From a virus (Duplodnaviria > Heunggongvirae > Uroviricota > Caudoviricetes), in IMG/VR virus record IMGVR_UViG_2551306526_000005: 31,573 nucleotides of DNA; one strand, written 5' to 3'. This document shows positions 1-18,096 of the stretch, piece by piece (positions within the stretch are counted from its first letter, which is position 1; every line of letters starts with the position of its first letter). The notes beneath the pieces are model-generated. The model searched no databases, was not told where the DNA came from, and saw nothing but the letters and a program-made list of their open reading frames with translations. The position numbers and the translations under genes are program-made.

Positions 1-996
1 TTATGGACGCATTATGGACATTCCTGACACCGGGTTAAGAGTCACTGCATCTTGTAAGAAATCCGGTGCAAAGTGTGCGTAGGTCATAGTTTGCTGAATG
101 TTAGAATGACCCAAGATGCGCTGCAATGTGATTATGTTACCTCCATTCATTATAAAATGTGTGGCAAATGTATGCCTCAAAACATGCACTGCCTGTCCGT
201 CAGGTAAATCGGGTTTTACTTCCCTGAGAGCGTTGCGCACTTTGTAGTAACTGGCATTAAAAAGCCTGCCTGAATTTTTGGTCTTGATCCGTTTAATCAG
301 GTCCTGCGAAACGGGAATTGTCCTGCGCTTTCCGTTTTTAGTTTTCATAAACGTAACCATCTGGTTAATGATGTGTTCAGCTTTTAAATTAGACACTTCA
401 CTCCAGCGTCCACCAGTAGAAAGGCAGACCAGAGTCGCATTTAATTCATCACCATCGAGCATGGATAACAGCCGTGTAATCTCTTCACTGGACAAAAAAG
501 CCATTTCTGTAACAGCTTCACGTAATCGCTTAACCTCACGGAACGGGTTGTGAGAATGGTATTCACCGGCATCAATTAACTTGGTGAACATCCCGCTCAT
601 TATTGCCAGATGCCGATTTACGCTGGCTGGTTTTAGACCATCGTTCATCATTACAACGCGATAATCAGTTATCGTTTTCTTTGTTAGCTGGTCAGCTCTG
701 GACACTCCCATTTCTGCAAATTTGGCGATTATTGTCGTCAAACGCCCCCGTTCAATATCTCCACGCTCATGTGATTTTCCGTGATATATCCACCATCTGC
801 CTAACAACTCTGTAAGAGTTCGGCGGTCGGCTGGCTTCTCCAGCCACTCTTTGTTGTGGTAGTTAACCAGTACATGACGTTCGAATGCTTGAGCTTCACC
901 TTTAGTTTTAAATTTCCGCCTGATACGTTTTCCATCTGCACCCTGCGGTCTGACGTCCACTTCATAACGACCATCATCGAGCTTTTTAATAGACAT
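1..996 (-). CDS. int: Phage integrase, tyrosine recombinase (P2 Int-like)
   Basis: 331-aa ORF ending at window position 1; C-terminal catalytic region with R...HxxR...Y pattern (VLRHTFATHF...MTYAHF); first gene of a P2-like lysogeny module, co-oriented with the repressor. Confidence 0.9.
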   Translation of the reverse strand: MSIKKLDDGRYEVDVRPQGADGKRIRRKFKTKGEAQAFERHVLVNYHNKEWLEKPADRRTLTELLGRWWIYHGKSHERGDIERGRLTTIIAKFAEMGVSRADQLTKKTITDYRVVMMNDGLKPASVNRHLAIMSGMFTKLIDAGEYHSHNPFREVKRLREAVTEMAFLSSEEITRLLSMLDGDELNATLVCLSTGGRWSEVSNLKAEHIINQMVTFMKTKNGKRRTIPVSQDLIKRIKTKNSGRLFNASYYKVRNALREVKPDLPDGQAVHVLRHTFATHFIMNGGNIITLQRILGHSNIQQTMTYAHFAPDFLQDAVTLNPVSGMSIMRP

Positions 997-7015: not shown

Positions 7016-7747
7016 ATGGATACTATAATCGCTTTTCTATCACTCGCTTTTTTCGTTGCTTTCTTCATCGGGTTAATCAAGCCATCACTGGTGCGAATGC
7101 CAAACCGCAAACGTGCAAGTGCGGTTTATCTCGGAGGAGGTTTTGTATTGAGCATAATTGGTTCAATACTCTATCCAACAGAAAAAAGCCAGCCAGTTGC
7201 TAAAACTGAAACATCAACCGTTGCAGAACATAAAGTCCAAAAAACATTCGAATATGGTGAAAAAACACTCAAGGAATATCGGAACGAGTCAAAGAAAACA
7301 CGACACGATATTGTGAATAGTTACATTGATTTTAAGGAAGTTCCAGCCACCGCGTCAGATGCGTTTTATGCCTGCATGAGTGAGTATACATTTACCAAAG
7401 ATGATGAGTTGAAACTCGGTGATGTTCTTGGGTGGTGCTTTAATGATTATGAAAATGACCCGAATTCACTAAACAATAAAATCAATCTTGATACATTTCA
7501 GAGTAATTTTAGTGGTTGGGATGGTTCTTATCGTCCATTGGAAAAACTAATTAAAGATAATATGAACGATGATTCATCTTATAAACATGTGTCAACGGTA
7601 TATCATCTGGTTTTGAATAAAGACCCGCATGCCATTGTGAAAACCACGTTTCGCGGAACTAATGCTTATGGAGGAGTGGTGAAACAGACGATTGCTGCGC
7701 GTGTTGATATAAAAACTGGTAAGGTGATATCAATCATAGATAATTAA
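7016..7747 (+). CDS. Uncharacterised membrane-anchored protein, two N-terminal TM helices plus about 190-aa soluble domain (cargo)
   Basis: Start at ATG 7016 with AAGGA RBS; hydrophobic segments IIAFLSLAFFVAFFIGLI and VYLGGGFVLSIIGSILY; AT-rich codon usage unlike flanking phage core genes. Confidence 0.6.
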   Translation: MDTIIAFLSLAFFVAFFIGLIKPSLVRMPNRKRASAVYLGGGFVLSIIGSILYPTEKSQPVAKTETSTVAEHKVQKTFEYGEKTLKEYRNESKKTRHDIVNSYIDFKEVPATASDAFYACMSEYTFTKDDELKLGDVLGWCFNDYENDPNSLNNKINLDTFQSNFSGWDGSYRPLEKLIKDNMNDDSSYKHVSTVYHLVLNKDPHAIVKTTFRGTNAYGGVVKQTIAARVDIKTGKVISIIDN

Positions 7748-7857: not shown

Positions 7858-8640
7858 ATGAAAGTTATAAACCAACTTAAGAAGTTTGATAAGAAAAGAA
7901 CGCCAGATGATGGCCGTATTAGTTTGTTATATGAAAACGCGATTAAGTATGATATGTACTCTGTATATATTAAAGATAAAAATGATACAGAATACCTCTT
8001 TGACTGTTTGGTTGATGGGAAGATAAAGGCTTTTAAATGGGATGATGAGGAGCGTAGATTTCATATAAGTTCATACTTGGATATTTCTGAGCTTACGCCT
8101 GATTCTTTTTTTGGTGTTTATTACTACCGTGCGCATGAGTTGCGATTTAACTCTTTAAATGATTTAACCTTTTTAAGGGAGTTGTTCTTTAGAGTAAAAT
8201 CTAATTATGAAAATATAAAGTTTAGTCGTGAAAAATATATTTATCGACAGCAAAAAAAAGAAATAACTGATGTGATGTTTGTTCTCTCAGCGATTATAAG
8301 AATGTATCGTGAACGGGATGCTGAAACTGTGTTTAGTGAGTTTTCAATAATGACCGAAGTCGCTGGTAGTTTATGGGTATACCATGACGATAAAAACAGG
8401 ATGCGTAAAGAGCTTCGTTTATGCCTGAATTCTCTTGTTCAGAATGGAGATCTTGTTGAAACAAGTAGTGGATTCAGGCTAACAGGAAAGGCACTGAACA
8501 CAATATCTACATTCAATAAAGATGAGGTGCGGTACAGAGAGAATTTGAGTACTCAGAAGAAAATGTTTTGGGCTACTTTTTTCGCAGCAGTCGGCGGCGT
8601 AGGAAGTATGATTGCAGCTATAATAGGGCTTCTAAAATGA
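7858..8640 (+). CDS. Uncharacterised tail-anchored protein, about 235-aa soluble domain plus C-terminal TM helix (cargo)
   Basis: 260-aa ORF; C-terminal hydrophobic helix FWATFFAAVGGVGSMIAAIIGLL; AT-rich; separated from the upstream cargo gene by a terminator. Confidence 0.6.
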   Translation: MKVINQLKKFDKKRTPDDGRISLLYENAIKYDMYSVYIKDKNDTEYLFDCLVDGKIKAFKWDDEERRFHISSYLDISELTPDSFFGVYYYRAHELRFNSLNDLTFLRELFFRVKSNYENIKFSREKYIYRQQKKEITDVMFVLSAIIRMYRERDAETVFSEFSIMTEVAGSLWVYHDDKNRMRKELRLCLNSLVQNGDLVETSSGFRLTGKALNTISTFNKDEVRYRENLSTQKKMFWATFFAAVGGVGSMIAAIIGLLK

Positions 8641-14801: not shown

Positions 14802-15464
14802 ATGATGACGCTGATTATTCCGCGAAAGGAGGCTCCCGTATCCGGTGAGGGTACGGTGGTCATCCCGCAACCGGCAGGCGACGAGCCGGTGATTAAAAAC
14901 ACGTTCTTTTTTCCCGATATCGACCCGAAGCGCGTCCGGGAACGTATGCGCCTTGAGCAGACCGTCGCCCCTGCCCGTCTGCGTGAGGCCATCAAGTCAG
15001 GCATGGCTGAAACGAATGCGGAGCTGTACGAGTACCGCGAACAGAAAATTGCCGCCGGTTTTACGCGTCTGGCTGACGTCCCGGCGGACGATATCGACGG
15101 TGAAAGCATCAAAGTTTTTTACTACGAGCGTGCCGTGTGTGCGATGGCGACCGCGTCGCTTTATGAGCGTTATCGCGGCGTGGATGCCAGTGCGAAAGGC
15201 GACAAGAAGGCTGACAGCATTGACAGCACCATTGATGAACTGTGGCGGGATATGCGCTGGGCGGTGGCGCGTATCCAGGACAAACGGAGTAAACACCATG
15301 AAGAAATTATCCCTTTCACTGATGCTGAACGTGTCGCTGGCGCTGATGCTGGCACTGTCCCTGATTTACCCGCAGAGCGTGGCCGTCAATTTTGTCGCTG
15401 CCTGGGCGATTCTGGCGACGGTTATCTGTGTGGTTGCCGGTGGTGTCGGCGTGTATGCCACTGA
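14802..15464 (+). CDS. L: Head completion/stabilisation protein (P2 gpL-like) with aberrant read-through C-terminus
   Basis: First roughly 165 aa look like a normal protein; no stop where a 169-aa L would end (about 15310); frame continues about 50 codons of Cys/Arg-rich sequence across the lysA start. Confidence 0.7.
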   Translation: MMTLIIPRKEAPVSGEGTVVIPQPAGDEPVIKNTFFFPDIDPKRVRERMRLEQTVAPARLREAIKSGMAETNAELYEYREQKIAAGFTRLADVPADDIDGESIKVFYYERAVCAMATASLYERYRGVDASAKGDKKADSIDSTIDELWRDMRWAVARIQDKRSKHHEEIIPFTDAERVAGADAGTVPDLPAERGRQFCRCLGDSGDGYLCGCRWCRRVCH

Positions 15465-15723
15465 GTATGTGCTGGAACGCTACGGGCGGGAGCTGCCGCC
15501 GGAATCGCTGGCCGTGAAGATTGTCGCGTCGCTGTTTTTGCAGCCGGTGCCGTGGCGCAGACGGGCGGCGGCTCTGGTGGTGATGGTGGTGACGTTTATC
15601 TCGCTGGTCGCTGCCGGGTGGATTTTTACCGCGCTGATTTACCTCGTGGTGTCGGTGTTCTTCCGGCTGATACGTACGGCCTGTCGTCAGCGTTTTGAGG
15701 GGCGGGAACCATGTCAAAGCTGA
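15298..15723 (+). CDS. lysA: LysA-like polytopic membrane protein (lysis timing)
   Basis: 141 aa with about four hydrophobic helices; GGAG RBS 8 nt upstream; immediately precedes spanin pair. Confidence 0.75.
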   Translation: MKKLSLSLMLNVSLALMLALSLIYPQSVAVNFVAAWAILATVICVVAGGVGVYATEYVLERYGRELPPESLAVKIVASLFLQPVPWRRRAAALVVMVVTFISLVAAGWIFTALIYLVVSVFFRLIRTACRQRFEGREPCQS

Positions 15724-16136
15724 TGATTGTGCTGGTTGTGTTGTTATCACTGGCGGTGGCGGGGCTGTTTCTGGCGAAGCATGAAAACGCCAGCCTGCGC
15801 ACCTCACTGGACAGGGCGAACAGCGTCGCCAGCGGGCAGCAGACGACCATCACCATGCTGAAAAATCAGCTTCATGTTGCGCTCACCAGGGCAGAAAAAA
15901 ACGAGCTGGCGCAGGTGGCACTGCGTCAGGAACTGGAGAACGCCGCGAAGCGTGAAGCACAGCGCGAGAAAACCATCACGAGGTTACTGAATGAAAACGA
16001 AGATTTTCGCCGCTGGTATGGTGCTGACCTGCCTGATGCTGTGCGCCGGTTGCACCAGCGCCCGGCCTGCACCGACGCCAGTGATTGTCCACAACGCCTG
16101 CCCGAAAGTGAGCCTTTGCCCGATGCCGGGCAGTGA
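15711..16136 (+). CDS. lysB: LysB, Rz-like inner-membrane spanin
   Basis: 141 aa; N-terminal TM (LMIVLVVLLSLAVAGLFLA) then coiled-coil; overlaps upstream gene. Confidence 0.75.
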   Translation: MSKLMIVLVVLLSLAVAGLFLAKHENASLRTSLDRANSVASGQQTTITMLKNQLHVALTRAEKNELAQVALRQELENAAKREAQREKTITRLLNENEDFRRWYGADLPDAVRRLHQRPACTDASDCPQRLPESEPLPDAGQ

Positions 16137-16281
16137 CCCGCAGACGAACGGTGATTTAAGTGCCGATATCCGGCAGCTTGAGAACGCGCTGGCGCGCTGT
16201 GCCAGCCAGGTAAAAATGATTAAACACTGTCAGGACGAAAACGATGCTCAAACCCGACAGCCTGCGCAGGGCGCTGACTGA
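15991..16281 (+). CDS. lysC: LysC, Rz1-like outer-membrane lipoprotein spanin
   Basis: 96 aa in +1 frame, start embedded in lysB; signal peptide with lipobox-like LCAGC; Pro-rich. Confidence 0.7.
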   Translation: MKTKIFAAGMVLTCLMLCAGCTSARPAPTPVIVHNACPKVSLCPMPGSDPQTNGDLSADIRQLENALARCASQVKMIKHCQDENDAQTRQPAQGAD

Positions 16282-16711
16282 TGCCGTCACGGTGCTGAAA
16301 ACTAACCCCGATATGCTGCGGATATTCGTGGATAACGGGAGTATTGCCTCCACACTGGCGACGTCGCTGTCATTCGAAAAGCGTTACACGCTCAATGTGA
16401 TTGTGACCGACTTTACCGGTGATTTTGACCTGCTCATCGTGCCGGTGCTGGCGTGGCTGCGGGAAAATCAGCCCGACATCATGACCACCGACGCAGGCCA
16501 GAAAAAGGGATTCACGTTTTATGCAGACATCAACAATGACAGCAGCTTTGATATCAGCATCAGCCTGATGCTGACCGAGCGCACGCTGGTCAGTGAGGTG
16601 GACGGCGCACTGCATGTGAAGAATATCCCGGAACCCCCGCCGCCGGAGCCGGTCACCCGCCCGGTGGAGCTTTATATCAATGGCGAACTGGTGAGCAAGT
16701 GGGATGAATGA
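16244..16711 (+). CDS. R: Tail completion protein (P2 gpR-like)
   Basis: 155 aa, matching recalled P2 R length; synteny. Confidence 0.85.
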   Translation: MLKPDSLRRALTDAVTVLKTNPDMLRIFVDNGSIASTLATSLSFEKRYTLNVIVTDFTGDFDLLIVPVLAWLRENQPDIMTTDAGQKKGFTFYADINNDSSFDISISLMLTERTLVSEVDGALHVKNIPEPPPPEPVTRPVELYINGELVSKWDE

Positions 16712-17156
16712 GTTTAAGCGTTTTGAAGACCGGCTGACCGGACTGATTGAATCGCTGTCACCGTCAGGGCGTCGGCGACTGAGCGCCGAACTGGCAAAAC
16801 GTCTGCGACAGAGTCAGCAGCGTCGGGTGATGGCTCAGAAAGCCCCGGACGGCACACCCTACGTGCCACGCCAGCAGCAGAGCGCCAGAAAAAAGACTGG
16901 TCGTGTTAAGCGAAAAATGTTTGCGAAACTTATCACCAGTCGTTTTTTGCATATCCGCGCCAGCCCGGAACAGGCATCAATGGAGTTTTACGGCGGGAAG
17001 TCACCGAAAATCGCCAGCGTGCATCAGTTCGGTCTGTCGGAAGAAACCCGGAAAGACGGTAAGAAAATTGATTATCCGGCGCGTCCTCTGCTCGGCTTTA
17101 CCGGTGAGGATGTGCAGATGATTGAAGAGATTATCCTGGCTCACCTTGAGCGTTAG
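16704..17156 (+). CDS. S: Tail completion protein (P2 gpS-like)
   Basis: 150 aa, matching recalled P2 S length; start overlaps R stop. Confidence 0.85.
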   Translation: MNEFKRFEDRLTGLIESLSPSGRRRLSAELAKRLRQSQQRRVMAQKAPDGTPYVPRQQQSARKKTGRVKRKMFAKLITSRFLHIRASPEQASMEFYGGKSPKIASVHQFGLSEETRKDGKKIDYPARPLLGFTGEDVQMIEEIILAHLER

Positions 17157-17187
17157 TTTTATCCAGGCAGAGGCTGATGCGCAATTA

Positions 17188-17220
17188 AACATTGAGCGGC
17201 CATGCTGGTCGCTCAATGTT
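17188..17220. terminator. Bidirectional stem-loop between convergent S and the cargo gene
   Basis: Perfect 11-bp inverted repeat AACATTGAGCG...CGCTCAATGTT with about 11-nt loop between two convergent stop codons. Confidence 0.5.
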
Positions 17221-17227
17221 TAGAGGT

Positions 17228-18013
17228 TTATGAGTGATTTTTATTTGATGCTTTGTATTCTACAACCTTCTTATTGGCGTAAAGGAATTTTGTATATGAC
17301 AGGAATATAACCAGACCTGAAGTGAAATAGACGAGGGATAGTATTAATAATGCTTTTTTGTGACTGTTATTATCTTTAATCTCCTGGCTTAACCATTCGG
17401 AGTCCTCCTCGTTTAGCTGTAAGAGCTTATTGCAGGCGATTTCAGGAAGTGTGTCTTTTATAAATACGTTTTGCAGTCTCTTGCAATCGGCAAGGCTATA
17501 AGTTTTATTAAATTCAACTGCTTTATTTTTGAAGGATAAAAGAACTTTGTCACTATAAACATAGTACATCATATTTTTATATGGTATGCCTATGGCATCT
17601 CTTACTATAGCGGATTGTTTGTTGTGTATATAACATGCGAAGAGAATATAAATAATACTGGCCAGAATTACAATTATTGTTTTAATTATGTGTGGTGGTT
17701 TTGTTATGTCACCCCAGAAGCGAGTAAGGAAAAAATACGATGTTTTTAGTTTTCCATCAATCAGCCCCTGCTGTATCATTCTCACATCTTCGATGCCTGA
17801 TACATTGATTCCGTTAATTATTTTAAATAGTTGAATGTCGCGCCATTTTTTGTCGAGCATTTTTAACTTTCTGTCTGAATACTCAAGATTGAAATGATGT
17901 GCAATAAACCTCATAAGATTACTTTTACCAAAGGTAACAAATGTTAATGCTATTAATAAAAATAGATACAAAGAGATAAACCACCACGCATTAGTCACAT
18001 TATCACTGAACAT
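17228..18013 (-). CDS. Uncharacterised polytopic membrane protein, three predicted TM helices (cargo)
   Basis: 261-aa ORF on the strand opposite the late operon; very AT-rich; hydrophobic segments WWFISLYLFLLIALTFVTF, IIKTIIVILASIIYILFACYI, ALLILSLVYFTSGLVIFL. Confidence 0.6.
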   Translation of the reverse strand: MFSDNVTNAWWFISLYLFLLIALTFVTFGKSNLMRFIAHHFNLEYSDRKLKMLDKKWRDIQLFKIINGINVSGIEDVRMIQQGLIDGKLKTSYFFLTRFWGDITKPPHIIKTIIVILASIIYILFACYIHNKQSAIVRDAIGIPYKNMMYYVYSDKVLLSFKNKAVEFNKTYSLADCKRLQNVFIKDTLPEIACNKLLQLNEEDSEWLSQEIKDNNSHKKALLILSLVYFTSGLVIFLSYTKFLYANKKVVEYKASNKNHS

Positions 18014-18096
18014 TACACTCTCCTCGAATGTTGTATGGTCGTTCTACAAATGAATCCAGATAGCATAACTTTTATATATTGTGCAATCTCACACGC

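Follow-up and report, generated by a model that had tools for sequence, protein, structure and literature searches.

Loss of gene X, holin and endolysin from a P2-like prophage of the Escherichia coli O78 ST23 lineage, and a possible recurrent breakpoint upstream of lysA

Between the head completion gene L and lysA, phage P2 carries gene X, the holin gene Y, and the endolysin gene K. In the stretch of DNA analysed here (31,573 nucleotides, referred to below as the window), the reading frame of L passes directly into lysA, and a preliminary description of the sequence proposed that the three intervening genes had been deleted and that the prophage was lysis-defective. Such a locus raises the questions of whether the missing DNA is absent from the chromosome or only from the assembly, whether lysis could be provided from elsewhere in the element, and why the break should lie immediately upstream of lysA.

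The window corresponds to a P2-like prophage of 31.6 kb adjoining pflA in the E. coli APEC O78/chi7122 (ST23) lineage. Its full length is matched at 99.99% identity by positions 1706449-1738020 of NC_020163.1 (APEC O78), the differences being a single-nucleotide polymorphism at window position 8291 (C versus T), inside a cargo open reading frame (ORF) at 7858-8640, and a homopolymer at 22981-22990 that comprises ten G residues in the window and nine in the reference; the window thus derives from a sister assembly or strain. Coordinates of the RefSeq locus (L001) were converted to window coordinates by subtracting 1401, or 1400 beyond position 22990. APEC O78, chi7122, and IMT2125 are closely related O78:H9 ST23 strains (PMC4313913). 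In the RefSeq annotation int adjoins pflA and ogrK adjoins pflB, which identifies the element as a chromosomal insertion, and its gene order (Q P and O N M L ... lysA lysB lysC R S V ... FI FII E T U D ogr) is collinear with that of Peduovirus-type phages. A query across the junction region matched P2 and 75 other phage records at 97% identity, and the Pfam families of the neighbouring genes agree with a P2-like assignment. The integrase gene is very common in public assemblies (14,860 blocks in the index) and lies beside a pflA homologue in 10 of the 10 contexts listed in other genomes; the pflA-pflB interval is therefore the regular attachment site of this integrase type, unlike the sites that P2 uses. 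RefSeq shows the replication, immunity, and cargo genes intact, together with the head genes Q, P, O, N, and M. The features needed for the description of the junction are listed here in window coordinates.

1-996, minus strand: integrase gene
14802-15464, plus strand: L', fusion ORF of 220 aa, identified by translation against the intact 169-aa L; a pseudogene missing its C-terminus in RefSeq
15282-15283, plus strand: deletion junction with a 2-nt AA microhomology; 1,013 bp missing
15284-15297, plus strand: native K-lysA spacer of 14 nt, ACGGAGTAAACACC, retained
15298-15723, plus strand: lysA, intact, 141 aa (RefSeq CDS; Pfam PF28015 LysA)
15711-16136, plus strand: lysB, intact, 141 aa, Rz-like spanin (RefSeq annotation)
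15991-16281, plus strand: lysC, intact, Rz1-like spanin (Pfam PF23793 LysC, E = 3e-17; RefSeq start 16018)

The frame of L remains open from 14802 to 15464, giving a product of 220 aa where L of P2 and of the sister prophages has 169 aa, and lysA begins within it at 15298 in another frame, as had been described. When a 1,701-bp query across this region was compared by BLAST with P2 and approximately 1,470 E. coli prophages, it split into two pieces spanning 2,714 bp in P2 and in every one of these prophages, and a single-piece match was found only in APEC O78. The gap is exactly 1,013 bp against both the intact prophage MSB1_9I and an intact sister prophage with flanks 100% identical to the window (L018, described below), in keeping with the gap of roughly 1 kb spanning X-Y-K that had been predicted against a P2 reference genome. 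In BLAST comparisons with MSB1_9I and other intact prophages, and in a three-way alignment, the left-hand match runs up to 15283 and the right-hand one begins at 15282. The two parents have the dinucleotide AA in common, the L parent reading ..CCAGGACAA/GCCGCG.. and the K-lysA parent ..CCGGCTTAA/ACGGAG.. (a slash marks the break here and below). Over a longer stretch, the L parent reads ..ATCCAGGACAA/GCCGCGCTG.. and the K-lysA parent, which includes the K stop codon, the spacer, and the lysA start, reads ..GTACCGGCTTAA/ACGGAGTAAACACCATG..; the window reads ..ATCCAGGACAAACGGAGTAAACACCATG.. across the join. Upstream of the AA, the parents show a weak, patchy similarity when compared by eye (13 of 23 positions).

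The lost 1,013 bp comprise the last 8 codons of L together with the whole of X, Y, and K, so that all three genes named in the preliminary description lie within the deletion. Residues 1-161 of L' are those of the head completion protein gpL, and residues 162-220 come from an out-of-frame reading of the K-lysA spacer and of 55 codons' worth at the start of lysA. The Pfam family PF05926 (Phage_GPL) matches L' at residues 31-166 (E = 4e-52), with the end of the domain lost. The out-of-frame extension had been recognized in the preliminary description, although at about 50 codons; its length is 59. One detail of that description has to be replaced, namely the reading of GGAGTAA (15286-15292) as the remnant 3' end of an upstream gene. 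This motif lies within the native K-lysA spacer, its GGAG (15286-15289) is the Shine-Dalgarno sequence of lysA, and ACGGAGTAAACACC follows the K stop codon unchanged in P2, MSB1_9I, USDA5905, and L018. We put the probability that this is a real, lineage-inherited deletion of 1,013 bp in an ST23 O78 P2-like prophage, joining the 3' end of L to the spacer that precedes lysA, at roughly 0.93. The join at AA would have arisen in a lysogen by illegitimate, microhomology-mediated recombination, removing X, Y, and K and exchanging the last 8 residues of L for 59 nonsense residues. LysA, LysB, and LysC would thereby be left without anything to act on, and ribosomes translating L' would now cross the lysA start.

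Collapse or mis-joining during assembly, with the loss of approximately 1 kb actually present in the chromosome, might be suspected from the date of the reference genome (2013) and from the presence of the L-lysA junction in just 1 of 5,426 complete E. coli genomes. Against this, the exact 220-aa L' fusion protein is encoded on at least 18 contigs from independent assemblies, in DNA identical to that of the window. These include chi7122 (HE962388), GCA_024733625.1, and six Logan assemblies of sequencing runs (SRR30348745, SRR8112698, SRR10527925, SRR30349955, ERR8574042, and SRR11484662), so that the fusion ORF and its flanking DNA are found in assemblies made from raw runs as well; both are also found in GCA_052496795.1 and GCA_030392675.1. 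Because the fusion protein occurs on so many independently assembled contigs, and because the lost segment is flanked only by a 2-nt repeat, which offers an assembler nothing to collapse, we regard the chance of an artefact as practically nil.

The parental sequence of the deletion was found through a look-up of the window LysA protein, which occurs alongside L, X, Y, and K in other prophages, one of them in E. coli GCA_012184965.1 (contig AARWED010000001.1; L018). The L018 prophage carries L, X, Y, K, V, and W intact, shows zero mismatches to the window over 2,973, 3,395, and 541 nt of flanking sequence, and encodes X and K proteins that are 100% identical to those of P2 and a Y protein identical at 92 of 93 positions. 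The window with two extra segments of L018 restored, one of 1,013 bp and one of 509 bp, gives L018 exactly, and on this basis L018 represents the ancestral, presumably functional state. The second segment defines a further deletion in the window.

18097-18726, plus strand: V', 209-aa baseplate spike protein, truncated and running out of frame into J (intact V has 211 aa)
18674-18676, plus strand: second deletion junction with a TAC microhomology; 509 bp missing (BLAST against L003, L004, and L018)
18674-19480, plus strand: J', baseplate gene without its first 35 codons (N-terminus flagged as missing in RefSeq)

The 509-bp loss deprives V of its last 56 nt and J of its first 105 nt, and it removes the baseplate gene W completely. 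Related isolates carry these lesions in different combinations. The X-Y-K deletion is present alone, with V-W-J intact and at 100% identity, in three prophages (L004, L017, and L158), and is accompanied by the same second deletion as in the window in others (L005, L006, L008, L009, and L021-L023). In L007 and L024 it is found with two more losses, corresponding to window positions 16169-18454 (lysC to V) and 18676-22290 (V to G). As the V-W-J deletion is absent from sister isolates that have the X-Y-K deletion, the loss of V-W-J came later, and the X-Y-K deletion, shared across the series and present alone in some isolates, is the earliest lesion of a prophage that is still eroding. The X-Y-K deletion was the first step of a continuing decay, followed here by the loss of V-W-J and in other isolates by losses from lysC to V and from V to G.

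Of the five genes that make up the P2 lysis cassette (Y, K, lysA, lysB, and lysC), the prophage retains the last three genes intact according to their ORFs, RefSeq, and Pfam, which bears out what had been reported of them, and lacks the first two. LysA has been described as an antiholin and LysB/LysC as an Rz/Rz1 spanin pair (annotation of the P2 record; PMC3091744). The LysA of the sister copy is identical to that of P2 at 135 of 142 positions (stop codon counted), and LysB is identical to that of the intact prophage MSB1_9I. The window, and the locus together with its host flanks, were searched by tblastn with X, Y, K, and W of both P2 and MSB1_9I, and only chance-level matches were obtained (best E = 0.017). 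For the holin Y the values on the window were E >= 0.37, the Y protein of the sister prophage itself matching PF04550 (Phage_holin_3_2), and the best match for the endolysin K (E = 0.05) lay on the wrong strand inside lysC. No CDS of the locus is called a holin or lysozyme in RefSeq, and the ten hypothetical ORFs of the window matched no lysis family in PHROGs or Pfam and none in PADLOC, their PHROG families being of unknown function. The statement that no holin-like or lysozyme-like ORF exists elsewhere in the window was therefore upheld by tblastn, annotation, PHROGs, and Pfam alike. The host genome also contains other prophages, with lysis genes of their own.

The ten ORFs without functional assignment provide the argument for a functional phage variant in which lysis is supplied by unrecognised genes elsewhere in the element, since a lysis function of a new type might in principle be encoded by a hypothetical ORF that belongs to no assigned family. 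They include five cargo genes in the old/tin and Z/fun positions. An ORF between S and V is listed with these.

7016-7747, plus strand: cargo ORF, old/tin position
7858-8640, plus strand: cargo ORF, old/tin position
17228-18013, minus strand: 261-aa ORF between S and V, counterpart of P2 orf30 with the same position and length
23016-23294, minus strand: cargo ORF, Z/fun position
23347-23526, minus strand: cargo ORF, Z/fun position
24018-24710, plus strand: cargo ORF, Z/fun position

No Pfam, PADLOC, or annotated PHROG function was found for the five cargo ORFs, with the exception of one DUF3606, and PADLOC recognized no known defence family among them; their position makes them candidates for lysogenic conversion or defence. 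The orf30 counterpart is missing from some close relatives, such as MSB1_9I, which marks it as a variable moron. Several observations speak against a functional variant. Functional relatives with the same arrangement would have told against the deletion of lysis genes, and the L-lysA junction occurs in none of 50,697 phage records; an otherwise identical ancestor with X, Y, and K exists; and every hypothetical ORF belongs to a PHROG family that is also found in intact P2-like phages. The damage, moreover, extends beyond lysis, with X, an essential tail gene, lost in the same deletion, L cut mid-domain, and W removed by the second deletion, and tblastn searches of the window for X, Y, K, and W were empty. 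A functional variant is accordingly highly improbable.

In a deletion-bearing prophage, the consequences can be judged from P2 genetics. The annotation of the P2 record gives Y and K as essential for lysis (see also PMC3091744) and X as an essential tail gene; W is likewise an essential tail gene in P2. With X, Y, K, and W absent and L, V, and J truncated, the element is a defective (cryptic) prophage as far as the essentiality recorded for P2 applies to it, and we infer that it would be unable to lyse its host or to build tails. It does not have the composition of an R-type tailocin either, a bacteriocin derived from a P2 tail that combines a full tail and baseplate gene set with a lysis cassette and has no head genes: the element retains Q, P, O, N, and M of the head, lacks the baseplate genes X and W as well as a holin and endolysin, and has only truncated forms of V and J. 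Induction with mitomycin C, which had been suggested as a check, is a poor lysis test for such an element because P2-type prophages are not SOS-inducible. Taken by itself, the case is one of ordinary prophage decay, and it is partly flagged by existing annotation in that RefSeq already marks L as a pseudogene.

What sets the deletion apart is the position of its right-hand end. The first clue to recurrence came from partial matches in the junction search, where the homology of other prophages set in upstream of lysA at exactly these nucleotides. The motif TTAAAC (window 15282-15285) holds one end of at least five rearrangements of P2-like prophages that arose independently, each with a partner site of its own, and the K-lysA boundary is also the point at which nucleotide homology to 186, PSP3, and Klebsiella P2-like phages stops.

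Sequence spanning the K-lysA boundary: GGCTTAAACGGAGTAAAC

In XPFI_3_2/YJR (L012/L015), the segment from lysA to the middle of the sheath gene FI is inverted reciprocally, with Y and K intact and both junctions conservative around the AA core. In ETEC1701 (L013/L026), an inversion has one end within gene A and the other at the end of K, and each of its junctions carries a copy of a duplicated TAA. When 1,560 records were compared with a 600-nt probe placed symmetrically over the K-lysA boundary, the boundary proved to be disrupted in 83, and in 71 of these lysA is joined to the portal gene Q; at most eight of the records can have breaks elsewhere in the probe. The Q'/lysA deletions, 71 genomes together, are of two independent kinds with different attachment sites and different Q breakpoints, represented by strain H2 (L170), where the remnant lies at yegR/yegQ, and strain N385 (L171), where it lies at cpxP/fieF, each with a TAAA overlap. 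The H2 remnant (NZ_CP028733.1, 1813382-1826782) is a heavily eroded P2 element with almost no structural genes. Besides int, lysA, ogr, and the genes for immunity and replication, it keeps a cargo gene for a NACHT-domain protein of 1,330 aa, a pattern that fits the retention of a defence gene.

Other positions recur as well. A break in V at ACGGTA/AGCGG (window 18454/18455) has its left side retained in N385 and its right side in L024, one in FI at GACGGTT/TC (window ~25780) is used by both the XPFI inversion and the N385 deletion, and one in lysC at GATAT/CC (window 16168) is common to L024 and H2, two unrelated remnants that keep an identical 888-bp lysA-lysB-lysC' block. Breakpoints at window 16168, 18454/18455, 18675/18676, and ~25780 thus recur within 0-4 nt among the unrelated remnants L024, L170, L171, and L012. 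It is a tentative conclusion, to which we give slightly less than an even chance, that the K-lysA boundary is one of a few recurrent break sites, the others being in V, FI, and lysC, at which lineages repeatedly delete or invert.

Such recurrence of the lysA-side breakpoint in unrelated prophages suggests that "random" microhomology may be an incomplete account of the mechanism. The deletion could then have been triggered by site-preferred breakage or strand exchange at a hot spot at the K-lysA boundary, and not by chance microhomology, for which the odds appear to us evenly balanced. The independent rearrangements with different partners (L, FI, A, and two sites in Q) that end in TTAAAC argue for a hot spot, as do the scarcity of breaks elsewhere in the symmetric probe and the low background in P2-like DNA at large, where 826 kb from 123 genome and metagenome loci contained only four deletion junctions. 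The same survey also weighs against a hot spot, given that none of those junctions, and none of the 123 loci, was rearranged at the K-lysA boundary: the scan of species-representative genomes yielded three loci and no new rearranged context, and K lay upstream of lysA in all 120 loci of the metagenome scan. Look-ups of genomic context by LysB and by integrase likewise gave no new rearranged contexts. Three of the deletions, furthermore, have microhomologies of 2-4 nt (AA, TAAA, and TAAA) that could possibly have been a sufficient guide by themselves.

Nor did any of the mechanisms checked account for the site, whether nick site, motif, Chi, hairpin or terminator, AT islands, or terminal repeats. 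The P2 A protein, a rolling-circle nickase, was considered as acting on a pseudo-origin, and the P2 ori nick site (GCGCCTCG/GAGTCC) has CGGAGT in common with the K-lysA spacer; an ungapped 26-mer scan gave an empirical P of 0.90 for K/lysA and no enrichment of similarity to the nick site at 17 breakpoints. A common recognition motif was sought as enrichment of 4- to 6-mers at 25 unique breakpoints, and none remained after Bonferroni correction, the best raw k-mers being AAGC (11/25, p = 0.001) and GGTA (8/25, p = 0.006). The 888-bp block does not behave as a mobile unit with terminal inverted repeats, its end-to-end alignment score lying at the null mean (P = 0.43). Chi-bounded RecBCD resection was rejected on the finding that an exact Chi site is absent throughout the prophage and that a single 7/8 match lies near K/lysA, and AT-rich islands between GC clamps showed no significant effect (p = 0.25 to 0.5). 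Local signals at the boundary, whether hairpin, promoter, or terminator, found no favour either, with a DNA fold z-score of -0.5 and scans no better than shuffled sequence. The half-site consensus of the DNA invertases (cix/hix) does not seem to fit the K-lysA site.

Selection offers another way of explaining why these particular genes were lost. Removal of the holin and endolysin would spare the lysogen spontaneous killing while useful cargo stays, a form of domestication that is consistent with the lysis and X deletion being the first and common lesion of the series, with the regulatory, replication, and cargo genes still being intact, and with the absence of Y and K from other P2 remnants that carry defence-type cargo, such as that of strain H2 with its NACHT protein. 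The deletion is, however, a single event with zero sequence divergence, all copies being essentially identical, and selection on it is therefore unmeasurable. P2-type prophages have a very low rate of spontaneous induction, so that any benefit would be small, and the XPFI_3_2 inversion uses the same breakpoint with Y and K intact, which leaves the breakpoint unexplained by selection against lysis. We consider positive selection an unlikely explanation of the deletion.

As an ordinary deletion, the event makes a defective prophage in a well-studied lineage of poultry pathogens, which is useful for annotation and relevant to anyone inducing phage from chi7122 or APEC O78. The intact, single-deletion, double-deletion, and more eroded stages make up a natural series, cleanly ordered in time, whose first losses were the lysis cassette and X. 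The recurrent breakpoints are the only part that may be worth more work, and we present them as an open lead rather than a finding. If the preference for the K-lysA site is real, it would imply that an activity encoded by phage or host nicks DNA or exchanges strands at selected sites, a specific breaking or joining of DNA that drives and shapes the decay of P2 prophages, an idea that is directly testable.

Among known systems, P2 (NC_001895) has the same L...lysA-lysB-lysC order and the same K-lysA spacer, and its sequence to either side of the junction is approximately 97% identical to the window at the nucleotide level; it has what the window has lost, namely the 1,013 bp containing the end of L, X, Y, and K, the gene W, and complete V and J, and it differs in its integrase, attachment site, and immunity region. 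The sister prophage L018 is closer still, being 100% identical over the 6.9 kb of flanking sequence examined, with the same LysA, and carries both segments absent from the window. The remnants in H2, N385, and ETEC1701 resemble the window in having lost Y and K (a 3' fragment of K is left in ETEC1701), in keeping lysA, and in having a breakpoint at the K-lysA boundary, but they are far more eroded, with much larger deletions (Q to K, approximately 6.5 kb) or inversions, and they differ from it in attachment site and in the partner site of the break. For E. coli prophages of the cryptic or "grounded" kind, inactivation through internal deletions that spare regulatory and cargo genes is a known pattern, to which the concept of defective-prophage domestication belongs. 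Compared with cryptic prophages in general, the present case has an intact ancestor and successive intermediates at 100% identity, which show directly in what order the lesions arose.
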